A stretch of 32,000 nt of DNA, taken from contig NC_009483.1 in the NCBI RefSeq assembly GCF_000016745.1, positions 4,530,001-4,562,000 on the forward strand. Reading direction: 5' to 3'. Made by a program: the position numbers and the translations under genes. This document shows positions 1,767-29,536 of the stretch, piece after piece. A model generated the notes under the pieces. The model did no database searches and was not told the DNA's origin. It worked only from the letters and a program-made list of their open reading frames with translations. The stretch's first letter is position 1. Every line of letters starts with the position of its first letter. Source of the DNA: Geotalea uraniireducens Rf4 (GTDB lineage Bacteria > Desulfobacterota > Desulfuromonadia > Geobacterales > Geobacteraceae).

Positions 1767-2546
1767 TCAGATGGCATAGCTGAACAGCTTATCCGCATCC
1801 AGGTGAAACTCCGCCAGCACCTCATCCTTTAGTTTCTGAAAATCATACGATGCCCGATCCCGCGGTCTGGGGAGCTGGACCGGAACGATCTTCCTGATCG
1901 TCCCCGGACGGGACGACATGATAACGATCTTGTCGGATAGATAAATCGCCTCCTCCACGTCATGGGTGACCATGATCATGGTGATGGCTTCTGCTTTCCA
2001 GATCCGCTCGATCTCCTTGTGCATGTACATGCGGGTCAGGGCGTCCAGCGCTCCCAGCGGTTCGTCGAGAAGCAGAATCTCCGGCCTGTTCACCAGCGCC
2101 CGTGCAATGGCCGCCCGCTGCGACATCCCCCCGGAAAGCTGGGACGGGTGCGCGTTTTCGAAACCGTTCAGCCCCACCAGGTCGATATGCTCCTGGATGA
2201 TTTTCTTCTTGTCCTTGCCATTCAGCTTTTTCAGTCCGAGACCGATATTTTTTTCCACCGTGAGCCACGGCAGGAGCCGATGGTCCTGGAATACCACCCC
2301 CCGGTTCAGGCTGGGACCGTTGATCTTCTTGCCGTCCACGAGGATTTCGCCGCTGTAGTCGGTTTCCAGGGAAGCCAGCAGGCGCAAAAAGGTGGTTTTT
2401 CCGCAGCCGCTCTGGCCGATGACGCTGACGAACTCTCCCGGCGACACGCTGAGGTTGATATCCTCAAGAACTGGTACCTCCTTCCCTTTGGCAACGAACT
2501 TCTTGTGCAGGTTTGCCACTTTTACTGTCCCTGGTTTCTGATACAT
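1767..2546 (-). CDS. ABC transporter ATP-binding protein, NitT/TauT (nitrate/sulfonate/taurine) family
   Basis: Walker A GQSGCGKTT, signature LSGGMSQR, Walker B ILLLDEP, H-loop VTHD. Start chosen at MYQKPG (ATG 2546), preceded by AGAAGGAGGA. The ORF-track N-terminal extension to 2660 was rejected. Confidence 0.9.
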   Translation of the reverse strand: MYQKPGTVKVANLHKKFVAKGKEVPVLEDINLSVSPGEFVSVIGQSGCGKTTFLRLLASLETDYSGEILVDGKKINGPSLNRGVVFQDHRLLPWLTVEKNIGLGLKKLNGKDKKKIIQEHIDLVGLNGFENAHPSQLSGGMSQRAAIARALVNRPEILLLDEPLGALDALTRMYMHKEIERIWKAEAITMIMVTHDVEEAIYLSDKIVIMSSRPGTIRKIVPVQLPRPRDRASYDFQKLKDEVLAEFHLDADKLFSYAI

Positions 2547-2610
2547 AACGTTCCTCCTTCTCTGCAGTTTCGGTTTAATCTCCGCCTTGCCGTTCCCTTG
2601 GTGGGGGGGG

Positions 2611-3399
2611 TCAGGAATTCCGCCACTGCATGAAACGGTTTTCAAAGGTTTTGGCCACATAGTCCAGGGCGAAACCGATGAAGCCGATAATGATAATTCC
2701 GACCATCACGATATCCATGCGCCAGTTTATGCGCCCTTGCCCGATCATGTTGCCGATCCCCCCTGCCTGGGTAAACATGAACAACTCGGCTGCGACCAGC
2801 TGCCCCCAGCCGATGTTCAGGCTCATCCGCAACCCTGTCACAAGGGAGGGGAGAACCGACGGCAGGAAGATCTTCCTGATCAGTCTGATTCTGCCGAAGC
2901 CGAAGACACGTCCTACTTCCACGTATTCCTTGCGGACACCACGTATGCCGTCGAACGTGCTGAGGACGATGGGAAACGAGCACCCGAGGGCGATGAAGAA
3001 TATCTTCGAAGCCTCGGCAATACCGCAGAAGATGATGATCAGCGGTATCCAGGCAAGCAGCGGGACCTGCCGGATGGCGTTGAACAGGGGCGCCACCAGT
3101 TTCTCCAGGGTTCTGAACATGCCGAACAGCATGCCGAGGAGAAATCCCGCCGTGATGCCGAGGAATGTTCCGGCGAAAAATCTGATAAAACTGACTTTTA
3201 GGTTAAAGGCAAGGACCCCCTCCTTCCAGAGGGAGATAAATGCCGTTACAACCTTCCCCGGCGTAGGAAGAAACATGGGGGGCACCAGTTCCCACCGGGC
3301 CAAACCCCACCATGCGGCCAGGATCAGCAGCGGGAAAATGATGCCACGACTGATTTTCCTCAGATGCTCTTTGTTGTTGAATGAAACTGTGAAACCCAT
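2611..3399 (-). CDS. ABC transporter permease, NitT/TauT family (SsuC/TauC-like)
   Basis: Multi-TM protein with an EAA-type loop '...LSTFDGIRGVRKEYVEVGRVFG'. Start chosen at ATG 3399 (AAGGAA RBS). The ORF is open up to 3480, so the start is uncertain. Confidence 0.8.
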   Translation of the reverse strand: MGFTVSFNNKEHLRKISRGIIFPLLILAAWWGLARWELVPPMFLPTPGKVVTAFISLWKEGVLAFNLKVSFIRFFAGTFLGITAGFLLGMLFGMFRTLEKLVAPLFNAIRQVPLLAWIPLIIIFCGIAEASKIFFIALGCSFPIVLSTFDGIRGVRKEYVEVGRVFGFGRIRLIRKIFLPSVLPSLVTGLRMSLNIGWGQLVAAELFMFTQAGGIGNMIGQGRINWRMDIVMVGIIIIGFIGFALDYVAKTFENRFMQWRNS

Positions 3400-3532
3400 G
3401 GTTCTATTCCTTAGTCCCTTAGAAAAATTATTTGCATGTTTTTTCGAAGAATTTTTCGTGAAGGGACTTATCCCGTTCATCGGGGTTAGGATTGCCCTTC
3501 ATAATTCATAACTCATCCTTCATACTTATCCC

Positions 3533-4309
3533 TTAGCGGTAGCTGCTCCGCCAGCGTAGGAAGTACGCTTCAACCAGCCCCGCCAGGTAGTCCATGATGA
3601 ACCCGAGGATACCGACGGTTATGATGCCGACAAAGACGATGTCGTTCTGGAAAATCTGCCTGCCCCAGTTCATCATGTAGCCGATACCGACTGAGGCAGC
3701 CAGGATCTCCGCACCGACGACCGCCATCCAGGCAAAGCTGAGGCTGATCCGCAGACCTGTGGCAATGGAGGGGAGCGCAGACGGAAGGACAAACTTTCTC
3801 AGCAGCCCCAGCCGCCCGTATTCAAAGACTTTACCTACCTCCAGGTATTCCCGCGGCACACCCCTGATCCCTTCCAGGGTATAGAGCGCCATGATGTAGA
3901 ACGGGGCGACTGCTATGAACAGCACCTTGGATTTCTCCCCGATACCGAACCAGAGGACCAGCATGGGAAACCAGGCATAGAGGGGAACCTGGCGCACCGT
4001 ATGAAACGTAGGGCCGATATACTCTTCAATTCTCTTCGACAAACCAAGTGCTGCCCCGAGAAGAATCCCTGCCAAGCTACCGATGAGAAATCCGGCAAAA
4101 ACCCGGGCAAAACTTGCCAGTAGATGATTTATCAGCTCTCCGCTGGCAATGAGGTCCTTGAATGTCTGGGCCACGATCTGCGGCGGTATCAACAACAGGC
4201 TGGAAAACAGCTCCTTGCGCGTGACGATTTCCCAGGCTATCAGCAGCAGTACCGGGACAATCAGCCCCAGGGCCTTTTTATGTAACTGCAATCCTTCCGG
4301 GAATCTCAT
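3533..4309 (-). CDS. ABC transporter permease, NitT/TauT family (second paralogue)
   Basis: Multi-TM protein with an EAA-type loop '...LYTLEGIRGVPREYLEVGKVFE'. GGGAGGA RBS before ATG 4309. Confidence 0.85.
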   Translation of the reverse strand: MRFPEGLQLHKKALGLIVPVLLLIAWEIVTRKELFSSLLLIPPQIVAQTFKDLIASGELINHLLASFARVFAGFLIGSLAGILLGAALGLSKRIEEYIGPTFHTVRQVPLYAWFPMLVLWFGIGEKSKVLFIAVAPFYIMALYTLEGIRGVPREYLEVGKVFEYGRLGLLRKFVLPSALPSIATGLRISLSFAWMAVVGAEILAASVGIGYMMNWGRQIFQNDIVFVGIITVGILGFIMDYLAGLVEAYFLRWRSSYR

Positions 4310-4382
4310 CTCTAATCCTCCCTTTTGCCCCTGCTAATCTTGGCAAGGCTTTTGTGAAGCTCATTTCAATGTCTTATAAATC

Positions 4383-4462
4383 CCCCCTCTTAAGTTAAGA
4401 GGGGGTTAGGGGGAGTTATGTGGTCGTAACCCCTCCCAGCCTCCCCTTAGTTTAAGGGGAGG
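4383..4462. repeat. Two G/C-capped palindromic hairpins (ccccctcttaa-g-ttaagaggggg and cctcccctta-gtt-taaggggagg) inside the operon
   Basis: Read directly. They lie in the 188-nt gap between the methyltransferase stop (4498) and the permease start (4309). Confidence 0.5.
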
Positions 4463-4497
4463 AGCAATTAGACAAAAGCATTGAATACAGCATTGGC

Positions 4498-5322
4498 CTA
4501 ATGCACGATTGCCAGTCCCTTTTTTTTCTTGGCAATGGCAAAGATGGTGTGGCGGCTCAACTGGATGCCATCCTTGGTCCGGTATTTTTCCAGCTCGACC
4601 TCGATGTCCGATTTCACCTGTTCCCGCAGCCACTCCGGAACATTACTCAGGTAATTGCCGAAAGAACTCGCCTCACTGTGCCTGATGAATTCTTTCGCCG
4701 TCGGGTGGGTTCTTTTGACTGTTTTCACCTGGATGTCGATCACCTTGAGATTAACCTTTACCAACATGTTGATGAGTTCCGTGGTCGTCAGGTGGCGCTT
4801 CTCCGGCAGCTGTACGTGTTTGTTGTACGGCTCTCTCTGCAGCACACGGTTCGTGATGAACTCTATGCCGGAATAAAAATTCAGCTCCTTGGCGCCGGTG
4901 GTGATACCGACTTTCCCTCCCGGCTTGAGGACCCTGACAATTTCCAATAAAGCGGCTTCCTTATCCTGCACCCAGTGAAAAACCGCGTTCAAATAGACGA
5001 CGTCGATGCTGTTATCATTTATGGATTCAAGATTCTCGGCAGTGCCGATCTCATAATACGCATTCTGATGGGCATTCTTTTCGTTGGCGATCTTGATCCT
5101 CTCCTCAAGAGGATCTATGCCGATATATGTCCCGGTAGGCCCTATGATGTCGACCACATGGCGGCCGAGCCTGCCAGTGCCGCAACCTATATCAAGAACT
5201 GTAGCTCCCTGACTGACGTCGAGACTTTCGATCAGGGCAACCCCATTATTGAATTGCGAGTTGCTGAGTTCATCGTAGCTTTTGGCGAGTTCACTGTTAT
5301 CAAGTGTTAGAGTAATCGCCAT
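4498..5322 (-). CDS. Class I SAM-dependent methyltransferase
   Basis: Motif I 'VLDIGCGTGRLG' and post-I 'IGIDPLEE', then 'VVYLNAVFHWV' and 'LKPGGKVGITT'. Start chosen at MAITLTL (ATG 5322, AAGGAAGGA RBS). The ORF-track extension to 5388 runs into a terminator U-run. Confidence 0.8.
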   Translation of the reverse strand: MAITLTLDNSELAKSYDELSNSQFNNGVALIESLDVSQGATVLDIGCGTGRLGRHVVDIIGPTGTYIGIDPLEERIKIANEKNAHQNAYYEIGTAENLESINDNSIDVVYLNAVFHWVQDKEAALLEIVRVLKPGGKVGITTGAKELNFYSGIEFITNRVLQREPYNKHVQLPEKRHLTTTELINMLVKVNLKVIDIQVKTVKRTHPTAKEFIRHSEASSFGNYLSNVPEWLREQVKSDIEVELEKYRTKDGIQLSRHTIFAIAKKKKGLAIVH

Positions 5323-5373
5323 CGTCGCTAATCCTTCCTTGCTGCATCGCCAAGCGGAATTTGCCTGGCGCAT

Positions 5374-5468
5374 AAAAAAAGAGGCCAAGGATTATTAATC
5401 CTTGGCCTCCAGTTTTCTGGTCAGCCTTGTCCGAGCAATACGGATTGGTATTTTATTTAAACCCATTG
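5374..5468 (-). promoter_or_regulatory. Leader copy c1: conserved hairpin GGCUGACCAGAAAACUGGAGGC (5405-5426) overlapping an intrinsic terminator (stem 5381-5409, U7 at 5374-5380)
   Basis: Perfect 10-bp terminator GAGGCCAAGG/CCUUGGCCUC plus U7. The hairpin and the terminator share GGAGGCC. Paralogous to 10325-10423. Confidence 0.6.
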
Positions 5469-5470
5469 GC

Positions 5471-5490
5471 CTATCTAATAAGTAGAATAA
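5471..5490 (-). promoter_or_regulatory. Operator-like motif site A (CTACTTATTAGATAG)
   Basis: One of six related sites fitting CTAY-N7-ATAG. It overlaps the -10 element. Confidence 0.35.
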
Positions 5491-5503
5491 TAGCCAGTTT
5501 CAA
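5475..5503 (-). promoter_or_regulatory. Sigma70-like promoter TTGAAA-N17-TATTAG
   Basis: The hexamers and the 17-nt spacer were read on the minus strand. The -10 hexamer is identical to the one in the promoter-like element at 10430-10458. Confidence 0.4.
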
Positions 5504-5511
5504 TCATGATG

Positions 5512-6636
5512 TCAATGCTTTTTCGCTGTTTGCACCAAGCCGGTCCCTGTTTTTACTACTTTGCCATCCTTGTCGTATCTGGCCCAGAAATTTTCCAGTT
5601 TCAGCTCCTTCAGTGCCGCCTCCTGGTAACTGGTATCCACCCACTTATCAATATCGAAGCTCCTCTTGGCGTAGCCCTTCTTTATGGCGAAATCCAGCAG
5701 GGCTTTCAGCTGGCTCTTATGAAAGTCGTCACTCAGGACCCTCGACAATTCATAGGAAGACTCGGTTCTGTTCTGTTCCTTTATGTTGGCATAGGGGGTC
5801 CCCGCCTGGGACCAGAGCTTGAAAATTTCGGTCCGGTTCTTTTCGTCGGCCACATAACGCGATGCCTTCAGGTAGACCTTGACGAAGCGCTTCACCACGT
5901 CCGGGTACTCCTTGGCGAATTTCTCCGTCACGTAGACGGCGCTCACCGGACCGGAAGACTCTGGAAACGCTTTTTTTGGGGCTATGTACTTGATGTCGGG
6001 ATTCCCCGAATAAAGCACCTTGGCCACGCCGGTATCGCGGATCCGAATGCCAACGGCACCGGCATCAACATCCTTGGTGGCGAGAGCGGCCTCGGTATCA
6101 GTCGCCTGCAGGTTCAGCCGGACCAAGTCGTTTTCCGACAGACCATGCAGCTCCAGTGCCTTGAGGAAGGTATACTCGGTATTAGTACCCCGGATGACCC
6201 CGACTCTCTTTCCTTTCAGCTGCTGCACGGTGGTGATCTTGGAATCGCGCGGTATCATGATCTGGGCGCCTCTACTGGGCCCGCTGCCGAGAATGACTTT
6301 GGTCTTCAGCCCAGCCGCCTTGCCGATGACCGCCGGGAATGAGCCGTTTTCCGAGAAGTCGATGTTGCCGTTGGCAAATGCCTCGTTGCACGCTGGCCCC
6401 TGCCCTTTGAAGAAGTTCCACTCGAACTTGATCCCCTCCTTCTTGAACTCCTCCTCCAGAAGCCCCTTGGCATGGATGATGCCCAGGGTTCCTGAAATGA
6501 ATGGTTTGCCGTAGGCGCCGCCGGAGCTGCCGATCCTGATCACTTTCGGATATTTTTCTGCGGAAAAGGCGACGGTAGGCCCAAACGCCACTACCATCAG
6601 TAAAACGATAAATAAACTGCTCAATAACTTTTTCAT
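5512..6636 (-). CDS. Periplasmic substrate-binding protein, NMT1/SsuA/TauA-like (NitT/TauT ABC family)
   Basis: Signal peptide MKKLLSSLFIVLLMVVAFGPTVAFSA. The body, 'KVIRIGSSGG...LKGKRVGVIRGTNTEYTFLKAL', is typical of NMT1-type binding proteins. GGGAGG RBS. Confidence 0.85.
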   Translation of the reverse strand: MKKLLSSLFIVLLMVVAFGPTVAFSAEKYPKVIRIGSSGGAYGKPFISGTLGIIHAKGLLEEEFKKEGIKFEWNFFKGQGPACNEAFANGNIDFSENGSFPAVIGKAAGLKTKVILGSGPSRGAQIMIPRDSKITTVQQLKGKRVGVIRGTNTEYTFLKALELHGLSENDLVRLNLQATDTEAALATKDVDAGAVGIRIRDTGVAKVLYSGNPDIKYIAPKKAFPESSGPVSAVYVTEKFAKEYPDVVKRFVKVYLKASRYVADEKNRTEIFKLWSQAGTPYANIKEQNRTESSYELSRVLSDDFHKSQLKALLDFAIKKGYAKRSFDIDKWVDTSYQEAALKELKLENFWARYDKDGKVVKTGTGLVQTAKKH

Positions 6637-6666
6637 ACAATGTGCCTCCCTCTTTTATTTGTGTGG

Positions 6667-8166
6667 CTAAAATCCGTACTGGAACTGGGCAAGGAATTCG
6701 TTGTTTTTCTGTGCTTTGGGAATCTGCCCGGACACGATGTTATAGTTAAGCTGCAGCTTGGTCGTTGGGGCAAAGAACCAGTTGAAGCCGATGGTATAGA
6801 TGTCTTTACGGTCATCTTCCGCATCCAGATCGGGATCGAACCGGTCGAACCTCAGGAATGGCTGAATGGTTTGGGGGTACCAGTCACCATAGCGGGTCTG
6901 CTCCTTGTATGACTTCTGAAACTGTTCACCGAAGTTGTAGAACAAGGTGAAGGTAATGCCTTCACTCTTGACACTTCTAAAAGTAGATGGGGTGGTGATC
7001 GTGCCGTTCTTGATCTTCTCCTTGGAGAGCGACGGGTCCTCACCCCGGACATATTCCAGCGTAAATCCGACCGGCGTGTTTACGTAGGACAGGTCGCCCC
7101 CATACCTGTTCTTGTCGCCTTTTTGGGACAACGTGGTGTCTGTCGTATTGGTCGTTACGGAAATCGTGGCCGGCGGAGGTGTTGCGTTCGGCACGTTTAC
7201 CGTTGTGGTCGAGGTACGTGTGGCCGTTGCCGTTTTTACCCCCCAGTAACCGGAAACCCCCAGGGTCAGCCCCCGCAGGAAATCGTTATAGTCAACCGGC
7301 GCATTGAAGGCAACCCTCGCGAAGACGTCCTTGTTGTCGTTGTCGTCAGCCTTGTTCGGTCCGCTCCCGTTTACCACCCCAATAGAGTAGGCTATTGCCG
7401 GTACGCGGTACTTGCTGAAGCCATAGTCGTTATGGGGAAACAGGTCTCCGCTGAGTACAAGCCCGATGTCGCGTTCGTCGAGTGACAGCGCCTTGGTGAA
7501 CTGGGCCCCGTTGATCGTCGGTTTGTATTCCTCCGACGCCGTCGCCTCCAGGCCGAAAATCTTCTTCTGCTGCCCGACATAGACATAGAGGTATGGCTTG
7601 GTGACATCATTGGAGGGAAGGATGGAATAGCTGAGATAGGCGTCCTGGATCCTGAGCGTCAGGTCCGACCCGCCGGCATTGGTGCCGAACACATAATCGA
7701 CGTTTTTCCCGTCCTCGTAATCCTTTCTCAGATTCCCGGAGAATTTGAGGTTTAGCGAGGGAGTGCCGAATCCTTCCTTTACCGCCGGGTCATCCGACAC
7801 GACAAACTTAGTGGTGGCGGAGCCGCCGAATTTGAGCGACCTCGACGTGGTTGCGGTTTTCTGGTCATAATTGGTCTGGAACTGGTCGCGTAGCGTCTCC
7901 AGTTCCGTTCTTAACCCATTGAGGTCTCCCTGAGTTACCGGCTCATCATCGGGATCTTTCTCAGTAGCCGCACTGGCTGTCGACGGATCACTCGTTTCCA
8001 CTCCGGATGCCTGATCACTGCTTTTCAATGCATCATCTTTCTTCTCTTCACTCACTGCCTGTTCATCGGTATTTTCGGGTACGGCGGCGGATTCGGCGCT
8101 CCATGAAGCGGGCGCCAGCAACACAAGGCCAAGCAACAGCAAACTCGCTACTTTCACAACTTTCAT
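6667..8166 (-). CDS. Outer-membrane beta-barrel porin, OprO/OprP-like (anion/phosphate-selective porin family)
   Basis: Start chosen at MKVVKVASLLLLGLVLLAPASWSA (signal peptide, GGGGGAAG RBS). An acidic linker and a coiled coil 'LNGLRTELETLRDQFQ' follow. The body has alternating beta-strand character and a C-terminal '...FLAQFQYGF' with terminal Phe. Confidence 0.65.
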   Translation of the reverse strand: MKVVKVASLLLLGLVLLAPASWSAESAAVPENTDEQAVSEEKKDDALKSSDQASGVETSDPSTASAATEKDPDDEPVTQGDLNGLRTELETLRDQFQTNYDQKTATTSRSLKFGGSATTKFVVSDDPAVKEGFGTPSLNLKFSGNLRKDYEDGKNVDYVFGTNAGGSDLTLRIQDAYLSYSILPSNDVTKPYLYVYVGQQKKIFGLEATASEEYKPTINGAQFTKALSLDERDIGLVLSGDLFPHNDYGFSKYRVPAIAYSIGVVNGSGPNKADDNDNKDVFARVAFNAPVDYNDFLRGLTLGVSGYWGVKTATATRTSTTTVNVPNATPPPATISVTTNTTDTTLSQKGDKNRYGGDLSYVNTPVGFTLEYVRGEDPSLSKEKIKNGTITTPSTFRSVKSEGITFTLFYNFGEQFQKSYKEQTRYGDWYPQTIQPFLRFDRFDPDLDAEDDRKDIYTIGFNWFFAPTTKLQLNYNIVSGQIPKAQKNNEFLAQFQYGF

Positions 8167-8280
8167 CTTACTTCCCCCTTGATACTTTTTTGCTTCCGGT
8201 CGACCGGCAGGCAAGAATTTTCTGTTGTTGATTTTCTTCTGGTTAACCCTGCCGATTTGCACGAATTTCACTTGCCCATG

Positions 8281-8332
8281 GGAAACAAAAAGACCAAGTA
8301 CATTCTTTCAACCTCCGGTTATCCGGTCAGTC
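8281..8332 (-). promoter_or_regulatory. Leader copy c3: third, diverged copy of the conserved hairpin (GACUGACCGGAUAACCGGAGGU, 8311-8332) followed by a weak stem and UCUUUUUGUUU
   Basis: The stem CCAG/CUGG of c1 and c2 is replaced by CCGG/CCGG, a compensatory change. The 11-nt UCUUUUUGUUU is identical to the c2 terminator tail. Confidence 0.5.
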
Positions 8333-8394
8333 ACGCCGATGGTTACCGGTGGCCGGGTCCTGATTTTTTCCTTAACGAAAGCCGACTACCTGAA

Positions 8395-10324
8395 ATCGGG
8401 TAGGAGGCGGGATTGCTCCCGCCGTCCTCCCACACCACCGTGCGTACGGTTCCGTACACGGCGGTTCATGAAGTACGTTGAAGTCGGTGAAGCTGGTCTA
8501 TGAGTGATACCAGCCCCAGTTTGTCGAAGTAGAATTTCGGAACAGCTTTGTTCATATGCGCGGCCCCTGCATTCCACCAGGGGCCGCGGCCGTTTGTGGC
8601 CGACCGCCATGCAGTTGCCTCCGATAATCCCCGCCGCATCAGTTTCTTTGCTCGCGTCTTGGGGCGCTTCCACTGCTTCCAGAGAATGCGACGCAGTTTA
8701 CGTCTCAGCCATCCGTCCAGTTCCTCGAAGATGCCTTTTACTTCCGCGTACCGAAAGTAGTTTAACCAACCCCTAAGTTTCGGGGTTGTCTCTTCAACGG
8801 TGGTTTGGATGTTCTGACCCCTTCCCCGCCTAAAGATCGTCTTGAGGTTGGCCTTGAGCCTGGCAGCCGCTTTCTTGGCCACGGTAAGCCGCGGTTTGCG
8901 GTGCCGGGTCATGCTGTAACTCAGAAACGACCTTTTCCACGGACGGTCAACCGCGCTTTTGCCCTGGTTGACCGTGAGCTTGAGCCGCTCGGACAGGTAG
9001 CCGGTAATTGAGGCCATGACACGCTCGCCGCTTCTCCTCGTTGCAACATAGATATTTGCGTCGTCGGCATAGCGGCAGAACTTATGGCCCCTTCTTTCCA
9101 GTTTCTTGTCCAGTTCGTCGAGGAGGATGTTGGACAGCAGCGGCGAGAGAGGCCCGCCTTGCGGCGTGCCTTCCAACCGGGGTGACGTCACTCCTCCTTC
9201 AAGTATCCCTGCCTTAAGGTAGCTGTCGATAAGGGACAGCACCAGACGGTCTCCAACCTTGCGTTTCACCAGCGACATAAGGGTGTCGTGGTGGACTCGG
9301 TCGAAAAATTTCTCAAGGTCAATGTCAACCACCCACCTAAGGCCGCTCTCTACATACTTCCGAGCTGCCTTGATCGCTTGATGGGCGCTCCGTCCAGGGC
9401 GAAACCCGTGGGAACTTATGGAGAAACCAGGGTCGAACAGCGGGCTCAAAACTTGATGCACCGCCTGCTGAATGAGTCGGTCAAGGACGGTGGGAATTCC
9501 CAGCATCCGTGTGCCGCCTCCCGGTTTGGGAATTTCTACTTTCCGCACCGGTTGCGGGTGATACGTTCCCGTCAGCAGTTCTTCTCTGATGCGCGGCCAT
9601 TCCTCCTGTAGGTAGCCCTTCAGGGCCGTTACCGGCATGTTATCGACGCCGGGCGCTCCCTTGTTGCGCATTACCCGTGAGTATGCCGCCATCATGTTGC
9701 CGCGACTGACGATCTTCTCCATCAGTCCCGTTGCCGCTTCCGGCCAGTGAGCTGCTTTCCTTCCCGTGACGTTTGCCGCACCTCTCCCTTTCTCTCGCGG
9801 TTTCCAACCGCTACCCTCCGGGCTGGCGCCGGGTATCCCAACCCGGCCTTCTGCTGCTCCTGTCGTCATCGAAACTCAAGGCTCCTGTCCGCTTACTTCA
9901 AGTTCGGCCCTTTGTCGGTCGGTTATTCCGACTCGTATGGCCTCTGCTGACTTCTGCCAACCCATCCCGGCACCTCTCGATGCCGGTAGCACAAGGCAGG
10001 TTGACAGACCTCCCAGGGTAATGCGCGTGACCTTCATCCCATATACCCGCCGCATCTACTTCCACATCTTTCTGGATGGTTATCGGGCTTTGAATCTGTT
10101 TGCCTTCTCGCCCAGATGTGGCTGCCTCATATGCGATTCCTGTTCGTCGGGCCAGGACTTTGCCTACAGCTTCCTTCAGATTCCGGGTCGCCCCGGACAC
10201 CCTTGCTGTTCAGCTATCGGTTCCCACCATCAGGGTCCGAAGAGGACTTTCACCTCCAAGTCACCAATCAGGCACCATACCCAATTGGATGGCGCTTACG
10301 CGCCACGCGCCATGCCTGGCGCAC
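8395..10324 (-). mobile_element. Group II intron, bacterial class C-like (about 1.93 kb); 3' end accurate to a few nt
   Basis: The 5' end reads GUGCGCC at 10324. Domain V (8435-8464) is CCGCCGUGUACG-GAAC-CGUACGCACGGUGG with a CGC triad and a 2-nt bulge. Domain VI (8398-8431) has a GCAA loop and a bulged A at 8401. An internal RT/maturase ORF is present. The insertion lies 9 nt after a terminator stem. Confidence 0.85.
8466..9722 (-). CDS. Group II intron-encoded reverse transcriptase/maturase (no endonuclease domain)
   Basis: RT motifs '...GVDNMPV...', 'TPQGGPLSPLLSNILL' and 'FCRYADDANIYV', followed by a maturase X region and an ending '...FYFDKLGLVSL'. Start chosen at MEKIVSRGN (ATG 9722), giving about 418 aa. 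Confidence 0.9.
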   Translation of the reverse strand: MEKIVSRGNMMAAYSRVMRNKGAPGVDNMPVTALKGYLQEEWPRIREELLTGTYHPQPVRKVEIPKPGGGTRMLGIPTVLDRLIQQAVHQVLSPLFDPGFSISSHGFRPGRSAHQAIKAARKYVESGLRWVVDIDLEKFFDRVHHDTLMSLVKRKVGDRLVLSLIDSYLKAGILEGGVTSPRLEGTPQGGPLSPLLSNILLDELDKKLERRGHKFCRYADDANIYVATRRSGERVMASITGYLSERLKLTVNQGKSAVDRPWKRSFLSYSMTRHRKPRLTVAKKAAARLKANLKTIFRRGRGQNIQTTVEETTPKLRGWLNYFRYAEVKGIFEELDGWLRRKLRRILWKQWKRPKTRAKKLMRRGLSEATAWRSATNGRGPWWNAGAAHMNKAVPKFYFDKLGLVSLIDQLHRLQRTS

Positions 10325-10423
10325 AAACAAAAAGAGGCTAAGGAAATTTCCTTAGCCTCCAGTTGTCTGGTCAGCCGCCGTTCGTTAAGAACCGGTTACT
10401 TAAACTTATTTACCTATCGTTTT
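10325..10423 (-). promoter_or_regulatory. Leader copy c2: conserved hairpin GGCUGACCAGACAACUGGAGGC (10355-10376) overlapping an intrinsic terminator (stem 10334-10359, U-run 10325-10333)
   Basis: The terminator GAGGCUAAGG/CCUUAGCCUC differs from c1 by one compensatory pair. The group II intron starts immediately downstream at 10324. Confidence 0.6.
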
Positions 10424-10493: not shown

Positions 10494-11360
10494 TTAAATT
10501 CCTTCGCCATTCGATATTACTCCAGTTTCCAACTCAACAATCCGGTCACCCCACCCCCTGGCCCAGTTTGTCATTTCCTCACGGGAGAGCGAATGGGGAA
10601 GGCCAACCGCTTCATGCTCGGCGATATGCCTTGCCAGACGTCGGTAGAGGTAGGCGTGGTTCGACAGTGGCGCAGCGTCAATCACGGTACGGCCGTAGAG
10701 CTCGCACTGCATAACCACCAGCGAACGGGGTATGTACCGAACATCCGTCACCCCCGTTTTAGCGGCGAAGTCGGCGATTATCGACTCCATGAATGGAGCG
10801 GCCAGGCCGTTGGCAAGTATGCCGCCGAATGTCAATCGCCCTCCGTCCCCGTGCTTCTGGATGGTCCTGAGGATATTGTTGGCAGCAAAGATCGACATGA
10901 AATCCGATGAGCTCACCACATAAACCCGTTCCGCGATGCCATTGAGGAGCGGCGCGGTAATGCCGCCGCAGACCGCTTCCGCCGATACGTCGTACAGGAC
11001 AAAGTCCGGCCGGTAGCTCTCCAGGAAGGACGGTTCACCCAACCGGGAAATAACGGCTTTGAAACGATGTCCGCTGCAACCCACATGCGGATCAGGCATG
11101 CCCGCCTCGACGCAGAGAACCCCTTTGAATCCGGTGACGGCCACATCTTCCACAGCCAGAGGCCGCTTTGACGAGAGGAGATCAAGGATGGTTTTTACTC
11201 TCACATCGCCCCTGAGGGTTCTTGTCGAATCATGTCTGGCGTCAAACCCGATCTGGACGACCCGGAATCCCAACTCGGCCAGTGCCGCACTGATGTTTGC
11301 GGCCGTGGTCGAGGTCCCGACGCCTCCCTTGCCATACAGGACAATATGCTGCGCAGCCAT
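10494..11360 (-). CDS. NifH/BchL-family Fe-protein-like ATPase, orphan, with a degenerate Walker A
   Basis: Alignable by eye to NifH across most of its length. 'CVEAGMPDPHVGCSGHR' and 'YDVSAEAVCGGI' keep both 4Fe-4S ligand cysteines. The P-loop is GKGGVGTSTT, against GKGGIGKSTT in NifH. No NifD/K/E/N-like partner is present in the window. Confidence 0.8.
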   Translation of the reverse strand: MAAQHIVLYGKGGVGTSTTAANISAALAELGFRVVQIGFDARHDSTRTLRGDVRVKTILDLLSSKRPLAVEDVAVTGFKGVLCVEAGMPDPHVGCSGHRFKAVISRLGEPSFLESYRPDFVLYDVSAEAVCGGITAPLLNGIAERVYVVSSSDFMSIFAANNILRTIQKHGDGGRLTFGGILANGLAAPFMESIIADFAAKTGVTDVRYIPRSLVVMQCELYGRTVIDAAPLSNHAYLYRRLARHIAEHEAVGLPHSLSREEMTNWARGWGDRIVELETGVISNGEGI

Positions 11361-11427
11361 GGATAATCCTCTCTTCCGGGAGCTTATGCCTCATTTTCAG
11401 ACCATGAGGCGCCGACCTCAATGATAT

Positions 11428-11449
11428 AAATCTATCTACTTAATAGACT
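11428..11449 (-). promoter_or_regulatory. Operator-like motif site C (CTATTAAGTAGATAG)
   Basis: Fits CTAY-N7-ATAG. It lies about 70-90 nt upstream of the nifH-like start. Confidence 0.35.
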
Positions 11450-11495
11450 TATAATGTAAAAAATTTTCCCTGCTTTTACCTTCAATTCAGGGATT

Positions 11496-11516
11496 ATCGA
11501 CTAATCTACTTAAGTC
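11496..11516 (-). promoter_or_regulatory. Operator-like motif site D (CTTAAGTAGATTAG), weaker match
   Basis: Shares the TAAGTAGAT core. It overlaps the yezD stop codon. Confidence 0.25.
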
Positions 11517-11673
11517 TGATCTTTTCGTTGCGATCAATCTGAATCACCTTGCCATCCTGGATTACCAAGGTAACGGTCCCGTAACGGATCGCCCCCACGG
11601 ATTCGCGGATCCTCTGCTCCAGCTCCCGGCTCCACGCTTGCGTTGTTACTGTTTCGACACTTCTTATCATCAT
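11506..11673 (-). CDS. yezD: YezD/DUF2292-family small protein (55 aa; below the ORF-track length cut-off)
   Basis: Hand translation gives MMIRSVETVTTQAWSRELEQRIRESVGAIRYGTVTLVIQDGKVIQIDRNEKIRLK. 'YG(S/T)V.L.IQDGKV.QI...EK.R' is the DUF2292 pattern. A GGAGG RBS lies 3 nt upstream. Confidence 0.7.
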   Translation of the reverse strand: MMIRSVETVTTQAWSRELEQRIRESVGAIRYGTVTLVIQDGKVIQIDRNEKIRLK

Positions 11674-11719: not shown

Positions 11720-12790
11720 TCATATCTGGTAATCATCGACAAACACGCGGAACTTCCGTGCCCTGACAAAAACGGTTTCACCAACCTTGAGCGCCAGTTT
11801 CTGGTAAACATCCCTGGTCAGTTCCGCATCGAGGCTTTCAAAGGTATCCCCCCGCTCCAGTTCTACCCGCACGATCGGCCCGATCGAGTGGATATGGCGA
11901 ATCACCGCTTCGACAGAGGAACTGTCCGCGTAGCAACGCTCGATCTCCAGGTCGTGGGGGCGCACATAGCCGACTGCCGGCTGGTCCGGCAAAGCCGCAT
12001 GCTCCGGGGCGGACAGTTCCATTTGCCCAAGCTGCACATGACCATCATGGACCCTGCCGTGGAAGAGGTTGACGTTGCCGAGGAAGTTGTAGACAAAGGG
12101 CGTCGCGGGGCGGTCGTAGACCTCCTCCGGTGTTCCCGCCTGCTCGACCCTGCCCTGGTTCATGATCACCACCCGGTCGGCGACCTCAAGGGCCTCCTCC
12201 TGATCATGGGTGACGAAGACGCTCGTGATATGCAGCTCGTCATGGAGCCTGCGCAGCCAGCGGCGCAGCTCCTGGCGGACCCGCGCATCGAGGGCGCCGA
12301 ATGGCTCGTCGAGAAGCAGTACCTTCGGCTCCACCGCCAGGGCCCGGGCCAAGGCAACCCGCTGGCGCTGCCCGCCGGAAAGCTGGGACGGAAAACGATG
12401 GGCCATCCCCTCCAGCTGTACGAGACGGATCAGCTCATGGACCTTGGTGCTGATCTCCGCCTTGCCCGGTCGGGTACTGCGCGGCCGGACCTTGAGACCA
12501 AAGGCGATGTTTTCAAAAACCGTCATATGCTTGAACAGGGCGTAGTGCTGGAAGACGAACCCCACCTTCCGCTCGCGGACGGCCCGACGCGTGGTGTCCT
12601 CCCCGTGGAAGCGGATGCTTCCGCTATCCGGGGTTTCCAGGCCGGCGATGATCCGCAGCAGTGTGGTTTTGCCGCAGCCGGACGGACCAAGAAGGGCGAT
12701 CAGCTCGCCGGTCGGGATATCCACGCTGACATCCTTGAGTGCAGCAAATCCGTTGAAGCTCTTGGTTATGTTCTTTACATCAATACTCAT
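11720..12790 (-). CDS. cysA: Sulfate/thiosulfate ABC transporter ATP-binding protein
   Basis: Walker [25 protein letters not shown] and VTHD, plus a C-terminal regulatory domain. Synteny with cysT, cysW and sbp. Confidence 0.9.
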
Positions 12791-12817: not shown

Positions 12818-13702
12818 TTACTCATTGCCGGGCACCGGTTGCCGTTCCCGATTGAGCCGCCACTCCACCAAGCTCTTTGCCACCAGGGTAACGATGGCCA
12901 GCATCGCCAGGAGCGACGCGACGGCAAATGCCGCCACGTAGTTATATTCGTTGTAAAGGATCTCCACATGAAGGGGCATGGTATTGGTGGAACCGCGCAC
13001 ATGGCCGGAGACCACCGATACTGCACCGAATTCCCCCATGGCGCGGGCATTACAGAGGATGACGCCGTAAAGAATCCCCCACTTGATGTTCGGCAGGGTC
13101 ACCCTGAAGAAGGTCTGCAACCCGCCGGCGCCCAGAACCAGGGCAGCCTCCTCTTCATCCTTCCCCTGCGCCTCCATGAGGGGGATGAGTTCCCTCGCCA
13201 CGAAGGGAAAGGTAACGAAGATGGTTGCCAGGATGATCCCCGGCACGGCAAAGAGGATCTTGACGTCGTGCGCCTGCAACCACGGCCCGAACCATCCCTG
13301 GAGCCCGAAGAGCAGCACATAAATCAGACCGGATATGACCGGAGAAACGGAGAAAGGGAGATCGATCAGGGTGATGAGAAAACTCTTGCCGGGAAAGTCG
13401 AACTTGGCGATCACCCATGCGGCGATAACGCCGAAAACCAGGTTGAGCGGCACGCAGACCGCCGCCGTCAGCAGGGTGAGCTTGATGGAGGCAATGGCGT
13501 CCGGGTCGCGGAAAGCGGCGAAGTAAGCCGCTGCCCCCTTTTCCAGGGCCTGGCTGAAGACCGCCGCCAACGGCAGCAGAAGGAAGAGACCGAGAAAGAT
13601 GAGCGCAACGGTGATGAGCAGCCAGCGCACTGCTGCCGGTTCCGTCAATTCCGCACCGGGTATCCGGTCCTTTTTAGGTTTCAAGCCGCCAATCGGATTC
13701 AT
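12818..13702 (-). CDS. cysW: Sulfate ABC transporter permease
   Basis: Start chosen at [11 protein letters not shown] (ATG 13702, GGGGGGAG RBS). The ORF-track extension to 14167 overlaps cysT and was rejected. Multi-TM with '...[25 protein letters not shown]'. Confidence 0.85.
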
Positions 13703-13716
13703 TCTCCCCCCTTTCT

Positions 13717-14553
13717 TTATTGTTCCGCAAACCGTCTGCTCCATTTCTGGAGCAGGTTGACGGCAAACAGCAGGATGAACGAGGCCGAGAGCATGACCGA
13801 GGCAATGGCGGTGGCCCCGGCATAATCGTACTGTTCCAGCTTGGTGATGATCAGGAGCGGGGTGATTTCCGAGACCATCGGCATGTTGCCGGCTATGAAG
13901 ATGATCGAGCCGTACTCTCCGACCGCCCTGGCAAAGGAGAGGGCAAATCCGGTCAGGAGTGAGGGGAGCATGACGGGAAACAGGACCCGGTGAAACGTCT
14001 GCCAGCGGTTGGCGCCCAAGCAGGCGGCGGCCTCCTCGATTTCCGTTTCCAGCTCCTCCAGCACTGGCTGGACGGTGCGCACGACAAACGGCAGGCCGAT
14101 GAAGACCATTGCCACGAGAATGCCGAGGGGCGTATAGGCGACCTTGATGCCGTGCGGTTCCAGCCATTTGCCGAGCCAGCCGTTCGGGGCGTAGACCGAT
14201 GCCAGGGTAATGCCGGCAACGGCTGTCGGCAGGGCAAAGGGGAGATCGACCAGGGCATCGATGATCCTTTTGCCGGGAAAGCGGTAACGCACCAGTACCC
14301 AGGCCACCAGCACCCCGAACAGAGCATTGATGGACGCCGCCAGGAGTGCAGCGCCGAAGGTCACCCGGTAGGAGGCGACCACCCGCGGCGCGGTTACGGC
14401 CGCGACAAAATCCCCGAAGGTGAGGGTTGCCGTTTTGAAAACCAGCGCAGACAGAGGAATCAGCACGATCAGACAGAGATAGAAAATCGTGTAGCCGAGT
14501 GTCAAGCCGAATCCGGGCAGGACGTTATGTCGTTTCTTGATGAAAAATTTCAT
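13717..14553 (-). CDS. cysT: Sulfate ABC transporter permease
   Basis: The CysT-like N-terminus reads [34 protein letters not shown]. The EAA loop is '[21 protein letters not shown]'. Confidence 0.88.
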
Positions 14554-14644: not shown

Positions 14645-15658
14645 TCACTTGCTCGGTTTATAGATCTGGTCAAACAACCCGCCATCGGTAAAGTGTTTCT
14701 TCTGGGCCGCTCGCCAACCGCCGAAAAGCTCATCGATGGTGAAGAGCTTCACCTTGGGAAAGTTCTTGGCGTACTTTGCCGCCACCTTCTTGTCGCGGGG
14801 GCGATAGTAGTTCTTGGCCGCAATCTCCTGCCCTTCAGGGGTGTAGAGATACTTGAGGTACTCTTCCGCTACCTTGCGGGTCCCCTTCTTGTCCACCACC
14901 TTGTCCACCACGGCTACCGGCGGTTCTGCGAGGATGCTCAGCGACGGAACAACGATCTCGAACTTGTCTTTACCCAGTTCGTTCACAGCGAGAAATGCCT
15001 CGTTCTCCCAGGCGAGAAGCACGTCGCCGATCCCCCTCTGGACAAAGGTGGTCGTTGAGCCACGGGCGCCGGAATCAAGGACCGGAACGTTCTTGAACAG
15101 CTTGCCGACAAATTCCTTTGCCTTGGCTTCGTTGCCCCCCTTCTGCTTCAGGGCGTAGCCCCAGGCAGCCAGGTAGTTCCAGCGGGCGCCGCCGGAGGTT
15201 TTCGGGTTCGGTGTAATCACCGAGATCCCAGGTTTCACCAGGTCATTCCAGTCCCTGATTTTCTTCGGGTTGCCTTTGCGGACCAGGAAGACAATGGTGG
15301 AGGTGTAAGGGGAACTGTTATTTGGCAGACGCTTCTGCCAATTGGCAGGGATCAGCTTGGCCTTGTCGTGAATTTCATCGATGTCGTAAGCCAGCGCCAG
15401 CGTCACCACATCGGCTTCAAGGCCGTCGATGACTGCACGCGCCTGCTTGCCGGAACCGCCGTGGGACTGCTTGACGGTAATGTTCTCCCCGCTCTTTTTC
15501 TTCCAGTACTGGGCAAAGGCCCCGTTGAAGTCCTGGTAGAGCTCCCGGGTCGGGTCATAGGAAACGTTGAGCAGGCTTACTTCCGCCAGCGCGGCGACGG
15601 GCACGGAAACGGCCAGGGCCGCGAAGACGAGGATTTTGCTTATTTTTTTCAATAACAT
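14645..15658 (-). CDS. sbp: Periplasmic sulfate/thiosulfate-binding protein
   Basis: Signal peptide followed by '[66 protein letters not shown]', a strong Sbp/CysP signature. AAGGAGG RBS. Confidence 0.9.
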
Positions 15659-15693: not shown

Positions 15694-15714
15694 AAATCTA
15701 TCTATTTAGTAGTT
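15694..15714 (-). promoter_or_regulatory. Operator-like motif site E (CTACTAAATAGATAG)
   Basis: Fits CTAY-N7-ATAG. It lies 36-56 nt upstream of the sbp start, inside the presumed promoter. Confidence 0.35.
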
Positions 15715-15730
15715 TAATGAGACAAAAAAA

Positions 15731-16192
15731 TTAGATGTAGTAGTGCAAGACCCCTTTACCCTGCTGCTCCGCCTTCTCGGTACGCTCAAGTACATCTGCA
15801 AGGGTTGTTCCGTCGAGGATCTTGGCCATCGCATCACGGACATCCTTCATCATCAACCGGATGCCGCAGGTTCTTTCATCCACGCATTCATCACATTTTG
15901 CATAGGCGGTTTCGCTCACGCAGGGAACCGGGGCCAACGGTCCCTCAAGAATCCGTATTACGGTGCCCATACTGATATCCTTGGGAGACTTACCCAGGTA
16001 GTAGCCTCCCCCCTTACCTTTCCTGCTCTGGAGTATGCCGTTGTTTTTCAGGGTCAGCAGGATCAGCTCCAGGAATTTTTTCGGGATCCGCTCATCCCGC
16101 GCAAGATCCGCAATCAGGATCGGCCCCTTGTCATAGACCCTGGCGAGATAAATAATCGCCTTTAAGGCGTATTTTGTTTTTTTGGAAATCAT
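15731..16192 (-). CDS. Rrf2-family transcriptional regulator with a Cys-rich (probable Fe-S) segment
   Basis: The N-terminal wHTH reads 'MISKKTKYALKAIIYLA...IADLARDERIPKKFLELILLTLKNNGILQSRKGKGGGYYL'. The cysteines are 'PCVSETAYAKCDECVDERTC'. Confidence 0.85.
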   Translation of the reverse strand: MISKKTKYALKAIIYLARVYDKGPILIADLARDERIPKKFLELILLTLKNNGILQSRKGKGGGYYLGKSPKDISMGTVIRILEGPLAPVPCVSETAYAKCDECVDERTCGIRLMMKDVRDAMAKILDGTTLADVLERTEKAEQQGKGVLHYYI

Positions 16193-16221: not shown

Positions 16222-16250
16222 ACTTTATATTTGTTTATTCAAACTGTCAA
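16222..16250 (-). promoter_or_regulatory. Sigma70-like promoter TTGACA-N17-TAAAGT for the Rrf2 gene
   Basis: The hexamers and spacing were read on the minus strand. Confidence 0.45.
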
Positions 16251-28022: not shown

Positions 28023-28946
28023 TTAGTCGAACACGCCCGTTGAGAGGTAGCGCTCACCCGTATCCGGCAGAATAACCACGACGTTTTTCCCCTTGCCGAG
28101 TTTTTCCGCCATCTGGATTCCGGCGACCAGCGCCGCGCCGGACGATATCCCCACCAAAAGCCCCGCTTCCATGGCCAGCCTTTTGGTGGCGGTGTAGGCA
28201 GCATCATTGGAGACCCGAATGATTTCATCGTAGATCTTCGTGTTCAGCACATCCGGGACGAAGCCGGCCCCGATCCCCTGGATCTTGTGCGGGCCGGGTT
28301 CTCCGCCCGACAAAATGGCTGAATCCGCGGGCTCAACCGCCCCTATGTGCACCGCCGGATTATGTTTTTTCAGAACATCGCCGACCCCGGTGATGGTGCC
28401 GCCGGTGCCGACCCCCGCCACGAAGCCGTCAATGGAAAGCCCATCCATCCCTTTTATGATCTCCGGCCCGGTGGTCCTGCGATGGACCTCGGGGTTTGCC
28501 GGGTTCTTGAACTGCTGCGGAAGGAAGTAGCCATGGGCAGCAGCCAGCTCTTCAGCCTTTTGCACTGCGCCGCGCATCCCCTGGGCGCCCGGCGTCAGGA
28601 CCAATTCCGCACCGTAGGCGGCCAGCAGGCGCCGCCGCTCGATGGTCATGGTGTCCGGCATGGTAAGGATGAGTTTATAGCCTTTAACTGTGCAGACCAT
28701 GGAGAGGCCGATGCCGGTATTGCCGCTCGTAGGTTCGATAACCGTGGCACCGGGCTTCAGGCAGCCGTCCTTCTCCGCAGCCTCGATCATGGACAAACAG
28801 ATACGGTCCTTGATGCTCCCGCCGGGGTTGAAAGCTTCCACCTTGCCCCAGATAGCCGCTGAACCCTTCTTTTCAAACTGGGAGAGCCTCACCAGAGGCG
28901 TGTTCCCTATCTGCGCAATGACGTCTTCACTTCTCGATACCGGCAT
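28023..28946 (-). CDS. cysK: Cysteine synthase A (O-acetylserine sulfhydrylase)
   Basis: 'NPGGSIKDR' (PLP lysine), '[10 protein letters not shown]' and '[11 protein letters not shown]'. 307 aa. AAGGAG RBS. Confidence 0.92.
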
Positions 28947-29042
28947 AATGATCTCCTTAACATGAATGTTGCCGCGGCACGGTAAAAAGTTCCAAATGCA
29001 AGGCGCGCAACGCAGCAGATGGACTTTTTTGGCGAAGCCGCT

Positions 29043-29507
29043 TCATATGAAATACATGAATCGGTGGTCCTGCTCCCGCTTGATCCCCATGGCCTGTCCC
29101 CTCTCGCAGAGGGTTTTCAGGGTTATGGAGGCAAATAATTCGTTCAGTTTTGCGTTCGCCTCCTCCCAGACGGTCTGGGTAACACAACTCCCGTCAAAAG
29201 CGCACTCGCCCTTCTTTTTTTTGCTGCCGGCGCAATCCACCAGCATCGTATCCCCTTCCGTCGCCTGGATTATATCCTTAACGGTTATCTCTTCGGGATT
29301 TTTGGCCAGACAGTATCCTCCCTGGGGACCGCGCTTGCTTTTCAGTATCCCCTTTCTCTTCAGCGACTGGAAGATCTGTTCCAAGTAACGCGGAGAGATT
29401 TCCTGACGCCGGGATATATCCTGAATCTGAGCCGGGAGGTTCCCGGAATTGTACGCAATATCAAAAAGTGCACGCAAACCGTAACGGCTTTTAGTAGAAA
29501 GCCTCAT
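29043..29507 (-). CDS. Rrf2-family transcriptional regulator (second paralogue) with a three-Cys segment
   Basis: 'MRLSTKSRYGLRALFDIA...ISRRQEISPRYLEQIFQSLKRKGILKSKRGPQGGYCL'. The cysteines are 'DCAGSKKKKGECAFDGSC'. The ATG at 29507 is preferred over the GTG at 29516. Confidence 0.85.
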   Translation of the reverse strand: MRLSTKSRYGLRALFDIAYNSGNLPAQIQDISRRQEISPRYLEQIFQSLKRKGILKSKRGPQGGYCLAKNPEEITVKDIIQATEGDTMLVDCAGSKKKKGECAFDGSCVTQTVWEEANAKLNELFASITLKTLCERGQAMGIKREQDHRFMYFI

Positions 29508-29536
29508 AAATTCCACCCCATTATTAAATTAGCAAA

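Follow-up and report, generated by a model that had tools for sequence, protein, structure and literature searches.

Results

An Fe protein with a threonine P-loop

The 32-kb stretch of Geotalea uraniireducens Rf4 analysed here (contig NC_009483.1, positions 4,530,001 to 4,562,000, 32,000 nucleotides; hereafter the window, whose own numbering is used for its features) carries at 10494..11360, on the reverse strand, an intact open reading frame (ORF) of 288 amino acids (aa). It encodes a paralog of MarH, the Fe protein of methylthio-alkane reductase (MAR), in which the cis lysine of the P-loop is replaced by threonine. Fe-protein genes and proteins with this threonine are called T-type below, and their relatives with the canonical lysine Lys-type; substitutions are numbered as in Azotobacter NifH unless stated otherwise. 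The gene follows Rrf2-sbp-cysT-cysW-cysA-yezD and precedes a locus with a porin and an SsuA-type importer, which is the order given in a preliminary description of this DNA, and its ATG is preceded by a good ribosome-binding site (GGAAGAGAGG).

The Pfam domain Fer4_NifH (PF00142) covers residues 5-265 with an E-value of 3.6e-65 and a score of 220.6 bits (gathering cut-off 25). Four NCBIfam models match along the length of the protein and all score far below their cut-offs: NifH (TIGR01287) at 252.9 bits against an equivalog cut-off of 394.35, CfbC (NF033200) at 238 against 402, BchL (TIGR01281) at 161 against 345 and BchX (TIGR02016) at 111 against 331. There is no dedicated model for the T-type protein in NCBIfam release 20.

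The P-loop reads GKGGVGTSTT (11304..11333, reverse strand, as are all motifs of the protein), with Thr16 at the position of Azotobacter K15, while the trans lysine is kept as K11 (Azotobacter K10). The codon of Thr16 is ACC (11313-11315), from which lysine would take two base changes, and threonine occupies this position in 34 of 34 subfamily members; a sequencing error was therefore ruled out. Switch I (DARHDST, 11223..11243) keeps D40 and D44, with Phe at Azotobacter C38 and Arg or another residue at K41. The first [4Fe-4S] ligand, Cys95 (Azotobacter C97; 11076..11078), lies within GCSGHR and is invariant in the alignment; the SGHR after it stands in place of AGRG, so that the docking residue R100 is lost. 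Switch II (DVSAEAVC, 10968..10991) keeps D124, has Ser at L127 and Glu128 at the position of Azotobacter Asp129, and ends on the second ligand, Cys131 (in VCGGI), which aligns with Azotobacter Cys132. Ser156 (10893..10895) takes the position of Azotobacter Ala157. The C-terminal tail (WARGWGDRIVELETGVISNGEGI-COOH, 10497..10565) is common to the whole MarH branch and absent from sampled non-MarH representatives of the NifH family. From the above, the preliminary description was right to report a NifH-type Fe protein of 288 aa with a changed catalytic lysine, both ligand cysteines, switch I DARHDST and switch II DVSAE.

An AlphaFold2 model of the protein has a pLDDT of 71.8 and a pTM of 0.77, and its best structural match found by Foldseek is MarH 9fmg, with a TM-score of 0.81-0.85.

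A conserved subfamily within the MarH branch

Searching 5.8 billion proteins, we found 33 clusters that share the P-loop G[KR]GG[VIM]GT[ST]T, with lengths of 287-292 aa and 55-96% identity to the query. The next matches in this search are canonical GKGGIGKSTT proteins at about 52% identity, and lysine occupies the P-loop position in each of the 86 Lys-type clusters that occur in the best 120 matches. The closest match in the PDB is MarH 9fmg_D (1.4e-79, 270 bits), with the best true NifH at 184 bits; the identity of PDB 9FMG as MarH is confirmed by PMC13474568. Mean identity of the subfamily is 70% internally, 50% to MarH-like Lys-type proteins, 44% to Rhodospirillum rubrum MarH and 36% to Azotobacter NifH.

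Placement in a phylogeny had been proposed as a check in the preliminary description. Neighbour-joining trees were built on matches that are biased toward the query, and reference sequences of IsrH, NfaH and group VI are not among them. One tree recovers the T-type subfamily as monophyletic in 200 of 200 bootstraps and another in 190 of 200, and the T-type protein falls inside the MarH branch (198 of 200).

The subfamily is under purifying selection, with dN/dS values of 0.09-0.22 between seven T-type lineages. In 25 aligned members 71 columns are invariant, among them Cys95, Cys131, G10, G12, G13, G15, T16, T18, D124, N184 and P211-R212. The pseudogene that the preliminary description had considered is thus contradicted by conservation in relatives. 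NCBI and JGI records name T-type proteins "nitrogenase iron protein NifH".

Substitutions at catalytic and docking positions

We examined how the T-type subfamily differs in those columns for which Lys-type relatives show at least 90% conservation. Like Thr for K15, Ser for A157 occurs in 34 of 34 members, a position at which every Lys-type relative has Ala, and four further changes occur in 33 of 34, namely L127 to Ser, D129 to Glu (subfamily consensus DVSGE, DVSAE in the window), C38 to Phe and R140 to Leu. R100 is replaced by His or a variable residue, with Arg in only 4 of 34 members; both R140 and R100 are 100% Arg in Lys-type relatives. The change at K41 is variable and not fixed. The cluster loop and interface are also remodelled (G90L, G94D/E, G96A, A98T, and F135I), and the residues just after Cys97 differ among T-type members, which is unlike a conserved docking face.

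In Azotobacter NifH, K15Q, D129E and A157S each leave nucleotide binding in place and block MgATP hydrolysis or the MgATP-induced switch. R100 and R140 form docking salt bridges with the MoFe protein. Aligned to the T-type protein, PDB 1xdb has Glu at position 129. Retained in the subfamily are the trans lysine position 10 (K or R), Ser16, Asp39, Asp125, Asn185 and Pro212-Arg213, as well as Asp43 in most members. With these nucleotide-pocket residues in place, it is plausible that the T-type protein binds some nucleotide.

A wider clade of degenerate relatives

A profile search of 1.84 billion representatives recovered further full-length relatives at 35-45% identity. They have the tail W..WG[DE]....E.G.....G..I-COOH, in which W266, W270, G280 and I288 are invariant, and degraded P-loops such as GRPGVGTST, GKSGVGTTS, GRRGIGTSS, GKGGVGSST and others. 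The cluster cysteines are gone from many of them; in contrast, the subfamily of the window keeps both cysteines strictly. T-type proteins and degenerate relatives form one clade (200 of 200 in neighbour-joining). Its sister group within the MarH branch is made up of the Lys-type proteins linked to MarHDK (178 of 200).

Three loci on long contigs (loci are given L numbers from the survey described below) provide the context of the degenerate relative, here X: Rrf2-cysK-X in L100, yezD-X-chemoreceptor followed by an SsuA-type importer in L102, and cysK-yezD-X-aldehyde dehydrogenase-DUF2325-rhodaneses in L103. In these three contexts, the association with yezD and the cysteine regulon seems to outlast the loss of ATP-site and cluster residues, which points to a protein-protein rather than a catalytic role for the clade.

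Gene context across relatives

In order to compare the neighbourhoods, we fetched 184 loci, which include about 20 distinct T-type lineages; a co-occurrence survey of this kind had been suggested in the preliminary description. L099 does not extend far enough to show neighbours. A D-like gene lies directly downstream of the Lys-type gene in 107 of 112 cases, counting only non-identical Lys-type genes with room downstream, and yezD is directly upstream of a Lys-type gene in 2 of 119. No D-like gene is found directly downstream of the T-type gene in any of the about 20 lineages, and the nearest is 8.6 kb off (L096). Instead, yezD adjoins the T-type gene in 18 of 20 lineages, no more than 170 bp upstream in 17 of them and immediately downstream in L096. 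In L092 yezD is 4.9 kb upstream. An exception to this rule is L152, a divergent T-type variant at 1418-2284 with the P-loop GKGGGGTST, Arg100 kept and a NUDIX-like neighbour, where yezD is absent, with none within 1.4 kb upstream of the gene.

The order cysA-yezD-T-type occurs in at least 12 lineages, usually after Rrf2-sbp-cysTW. L105 (contig Ga0209639_1000033) is 94-97% identical to the window, and there a 7.5-kb block at 2192-9697 parts cysA from the yezD/T-type pair. This block encodes MetK, a 423-aa protein without Pfam match, a PNPOx-like protein, an SsuA-type ABC importer (binding protein, permease and ATPase) and a B12-binding radical SAM enzyme. L003 has this block as well, downstream of the T-type gene, and it behaves as a movable organosulfur module. 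In L096 the pair lies beside a B12-radical SAM gene and is followed within 10 kb by radical-SAM, NifX-like, Lys-type NifH-like, cysK and Oxidored_nitro genes. As the pair persists where cysA is displaced (L105, L096), the conserved unit is yezD with the T-type gene. We had considered cysA as the defining neighbour and dropped it in favour of yezD, the pair being away from cysA in L105, L096, L102 and L103. The tie to a sulfur regulon made in the preliminary description is therefore kept, with yezD and not the sulfate transporter as such as the conserved neighbour.

No Oxidored_nitro (NifD/K-type) protein was found in the window, either by Pfam on all large ORFs or by tblastn with MarD/K-like queries. 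The word "orphan" in the preliminary description thus holds locally, and it fails genome-wide for three relatives, in which the contig of the T-type gene also carries canonical MarH-like genes and D-type genes. On WSYB01000018, a contig of a Geobacteraceae metagenome-assembled genome, a T-type gene (68% identical) lies about 25 kb from a full MarH-D-K-like cluster with its own Lys-type MarH, the cluster being preceded by a porin, an SsuA-type importer and an aldo-keto reductase. A groundwater contig has the T-type gene about 85 kb from a full marHDK-like cluster, again with its own Lys-type MarH, and in L096 a Lys-type gene and a D-type gene are within 10 kb of the T-type gene, where the locus ends inside the D-type gene. 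A Lys-type copy is also found 5.5 kb upstream of the T-type gene in L003. With marHDK-like genes on the same contigs, the T-type protein is an extra paralog beside a normal MarH for MarDK in the organisms where this could be checked. The preliminary description named two findings that together would speak against a new system; D/K genes elsewhere were indeed found in relatives, while a threonine P-loop in canonical members was not (86 of 86 Lys).

In the Clostridia-type loci L058, L059 and L063, yezD is immediately upstream of a Lys-type marH in canonical marHDK loci. Judging from these three, the pairing of yezD with an Fe protein may predate the Thr subfamily.

Another pair recurs in sulfur-acquisition loci, a protein of about 417 aa without Pfam match and one of about 155-178 aa with a weak PNPOx_N match. 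It is located at 3091-4852 and 10165-11961 in L092, 3199-4945 in L016, 12345-14082 in L003 and 3677-5442 in L105.

YezD and the C-terminal ending

The neighbour gene yezD (11506..11673, reverse strand) encodes a DUF2292 protein of the short 54-55 aa form (55 aa here), with a Pfam E-value of 3.9e-19 and a weak match to the OscA model, which NCBIfam titles "sulfur starvation response protein". The YezD query has no significant match in the PDB, and nothing was found in the literature on DUF2292/YezD function. A 60-aa form of YezD/OscA (111 clusters) invariably ends in ...GHI[DN]GSGI-COOH; examples of this long form are at 8747 in L103 and at 5329 in L007. The YezD proteins that adjoin T-type genes are of the short form, without this tail. 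The T-type protein itself ends in ...TG[IV]IxxG[GE]GI-COOH (10497-10529 in the window), and Ile is likewise the last residue of MarH-like proteins. The GxGI-COOH ending common to T-type proteins and long YezD could be a docking motif or a chance resemblance.

The operon and its surroundings

All genes of the operon are on the reverse strand. Its first gene (15731..16192) encodes an Rrf2-family regulator, CymR-like and with a Cys-rich C-terminal motif, which has the same position in L001, L003, L087, L098 and L114. The sulfate/thiosulfate ABC importer follows with sbp (14645-15658), cysT (13717-14553), cysW (about 12818-13711) and cysA (11720-12790), whose product carries CysA_C_terminal and TOBE_3 domains. 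The ORF caller gave cysW as 449 aa (12818-14167) by starting from an in-frame ATG farther upstream, in overlap with cysT; in relatives the length is 294 aa, so the true start, going by their annotation, is probably near 13702-13711.

Upstream of the Rrf2 gene, a match to a sigma-70-like promoter is found at 16222..16250 (reverse strand; 10 of 12 consensus positions, a consensus match only), and 134 nt past the stop codon of the T-type gene there is a strong intrinsic-terminator-like hairpin with a 12-bp stem and T-run (10333..10360, reverse strand). Between this promoter-like site and this hairpin, the T-type gene is the last gene of the unit. The 145-bp spacer between yezD and the T-type gene (11361..11505, reverse strand) contains a weak hairpin with a T-run and an AT-rich box, TTAAGTAGAT, which is repeated; it may hold an internal promoter or operator and could give the T-type gene its own control. 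The box in its longer form, TTAAGTAGAT[AT]G, is located at 11432-11443 and 11502-11513, with a related copy at 15698-15709 between the Rrf2 gene and sbp, all on the reverse strand. It has 6 matches in the window against 1.75 expected. L087 and L105 conserve the box and L001 does so in part, and the Rrf2 regulator may use it as an operator.

On the 3' side of the T-type gene are a porin, an SsuA-type binding protein, a methyltransferase, two permeases and an ABC ATPase. A group II intron, overlooked in the preliminary description, lies before the porin gene at about 8396-10324 (reverse strand), about 10 bp past the terminator hairpin. It has Rfam matches for D1-D4 and domain V/VI and a 467-aa ORF for a reverse transcriptase/maturase (8466-9869), and it is missing from the corresponding site in the close relatives L087 and L105. 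Bacterial class C introns typically insert directly behind a terminator. A 461-aa ORF at 262-1647 on the forward strand has a weak match to the DDE_5 transposase domain, and L105 has other genes there; this ORF is a further sign of mobile-element activity at the locus.

A second Rrf2 regulator is paired with a cysK-type PLP enzyme (PALP) at 28023-29516 (reverse strand), 17 kb from the operon. An Rrf2-cysK pairing likewise flanks Fe-protein-like genes in L003, L100 and L103.

Discussion

A proposed non-catalytic role in sulfur starvation

In the usual view, a nitrogenase-type Fe protein works obligately as an ATP-driven donor of electrons to a D/K partner. The T-type protein is a conserved and non-canonical offshoot of the MarH branch of this family, and an ATP-driven reductase role is less likely for it. 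The same applies to the proposal of the preliminary description that it may donate electrons to an unlinked partner, with R100 and R140 lost and with D129E and A157S fixed or nearly so. We give a probability of about 50% to the reading that the T-type protein is a non-cycling, hydrolysis-dead sensor, switch or scaffold of the sulfur-starvation response, which works with YezD and is not an ATP-driven electron donor.

According to this reading, the protein would be made under sulfur limitation, co-expressed with the sulfate importer under the CymR-like Rrf2 regulator. It would form a [4Fe-4S]-bridged dimer which may still bind nucleotide and would be unable to run the cycle of ATP hydrolysis and conformational change, and canonical docking on a partner of the MarDK/NifDK type would be impossible. 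Acting together with YezD, the dimer or the state of its cluster might report sulfide, cysteine or Fe-S sufficiency. Such a protein would resemble BcsQ, a member of the same ATPase class, which has a Thr P-loop and forms an ATP-locked dimer with the small protein BcsR.

Several points weigh on the other side. The AlphaFold model is of moderate quality (pLDDT 71.8), and the neighbour-joining sample is biased, so that long-branch effects could inflate the grouping with degenerate relatives. Nucleotide binding is uncertain with K41 and often E221 also changed, and the putative link with YezD comes from gene adjacency. Both cysteines are invariant in the subfamily, which also fits a real redox role, and the marHDK-like genes on the same contig in relatives leave room for a function directed at MarDK.

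We tentatively extend the sensor or scaffold reading to a two-protein module for sulfur status, so far unrecognised, although this full version is somewhat improbable. YezD and the T-type protein would form this module, in which the dimer assembles only with adequate sulfide, cysteine or Fe-S and signals with YezD, possibly via the GxGI-COOH tail, to the Rrf2/CymR-CysK regulon or to MarDK; the relatives without cluster or P-loop would be later, purely structural versions. If such a module exists, a nitrogenase-type reductase scaffold has been turned into a sensor.

A non-catalytic role, if true, would be a natural case of an Fe-protein scaffold that is reused after three "dead" substitutions were fixed, the docking arginines dropped and a new conserved neighbour acquired. 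It would also offer a candidate partner for the widespread and uncharacterised YezD/OscA (DUF2292) sulfur-starvation proteins, and an unstudied component of the means by which Geobacter-type bacteria and those of wetlands or groundwater acquire sulfur anaerobically, beside the recently discovered Mar and Isr systems. Moreover, labelling T-type proteins as NifH inflates counts of diazotrophs that are based on nifH.

Alternative explanations

The T-type protein might be a dedicated factor for maturation or cluster insertion of MarDK or another nitrogenase-like D/K protein, independent of hydrolysis as NifH is in P-cluster and FeMo-cofactor assembly. NifH variants without ATP hydrolysis (e.g. A157S) still support FeMo-cofactor synthesis, and a factor of this kind would agree with the invariant cluster cysteines, with the three relatives that have marHDK-like genes on the same contig, and with L096, in which the T-type gene is 2-4 kb from radical-SAM, NifX-like and Lys-type NifH-like genes. 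However, the docking face is without R100 and R140, and T-type members differ from one another in the residues after Cys97. What adjoins the gene in 18 of 20 lineages is yezD, in most cases close to cysA or cysK, rather than marB, marD or marK, and degenerate relatives without the cysteines retain the same context. We consider a maturation factor unlikely.

Alternatively, the protein could be a reductase subunit of another kind, either an ATP-free homodimeric donor or one half of a heterodimer with MarH that has one live ATP site and would spend half the ATP per electron under sulfur starvation. ATP sites of the SIMIBI class are composite, so a Thr subunit could complete the site of its partner. 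The T-type protein has kept its cysteine ligands as well as the trans lysine (position 10, K or R), and its gene shares genomes with a Lys-type MarH gene, at a distance of 5.5 kb in L003. Pairing with MarH is hard to reconcile with the remodelled positions G90L, G94D/E, G96A, A98T and F135I, and donation to MarDK with the loss of the docking arginines; the T-type gene is never in a marHDK operon, and the wider clade has lost the cysteines altogether. This possibility has a low probability in our view.

The operon position itself raises the idea of a subunit that assists or regulates the CysPTWA sulfate importer, acting for example on the C-terminal regulatory domain of CysA. The T-type gene is the terminal gene of an sbp-cysTWA-yezD operon in at least 12 lineages, and CysA has the CysA_C_terminal and TOBE_3 domains, but the yezD/T-type pair is found away from cysA in L105, L096, L102 and L103 and most bacterial sulfate importers are without such a gene, which makes this role quite improbable.

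A decaying pseudogene or chance degenerate copy of marH, which the missing catalytic residues and the more degenerate relatives might bring to mind, was ruled out for practical purposes by the ORF that is intact in all lineages, the dN/dS of 0.09-0.22, the 71 invariant columns, the same substitutions in 33-34 of 34 members and the conserved synteny.

Comparison with known systems

The MAR papers and a 2026 review describe MarH, IsrH, NfaH and group VI NflH with intact Walker and switch motifs, and no Thr-P-loop paralog of NifH or MarH is described in them or in the other literature searched. As none of the curated families and papers searched describes it, the statement of the preliminary description that this is not a described system stands, and its link to methylthio-alkane reductase was a good guess, MarH being the closest solved relative.

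Homologues of nifH without nifDK have been termed pseudo-nifH, defined by gene content alone (Mise et al. 2021, PMC8597730). Like these, T-type genes are annotated as nifH and are not parts of a nitrogenase; that paper regards such genes only as noise in annotation, and P-loop variants, sulfur context and yezD are not mentioned in it. The neighbour of the T-type gene belongs to the short form of DUF2292, the YezD/OscA family, and no description linking DUF2292 to an Fe-protein-like partner was found in the literature.

BcsQ, a SIMIBI-class ATPase of enterobacterial cellulose secretion, shares with the T-type protein the change of the cis Walker-A lysine to threonine (Thr15 in BcsQ, Thr16 here). 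It purifies as an ATP-bound sandwich dimer, is a weak ATPase and works with the small protein BcsR (PMC7840130). However, the T-type protein does not belong to the BcsQ family (TIGR03371, 18.9 bits against a cut-off of 157.85), and BcsQ has no Fe-S cluster and a different biology, so the likeness is one of functional analogy only.

NifH of Azotobacter vinelandii and the T-type protein have in common the PF00142 fold, Cys97/Cys132, K10, S16, D39, D43, D125, N185 and P212-R213. They differ in that identity is only 36%, the T-type protein has natural equivalents of three inactivating mutations, and no D/K partner gene is nearby. MarH of R. rubrum (PDB 9FMG; nitrogenase-like group IV-C) is the best match in both sequence and fold, at 44-45% identity, and is alike in the Fe-protein fold, the two cluster cysteines, the C-terminal tail and the gene neighbourhoods of sulfur limitation. 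MarH has intact Walker A and switch I/II motifs and hydrolyses ATP to drive MarDK (PMC12552129, PMC13474568), whereas the T-type protein has K15T, L127S, D129E and A157S, has lost R100 and R140, and has yezD as its partner gene instead of a marBHDK operon. In summary, its predicted fold and its cysteines make the T-type protein a member of the Fe-protein superfamily, one that fails the catalytic, docking and operon features of both NifH and MarH.

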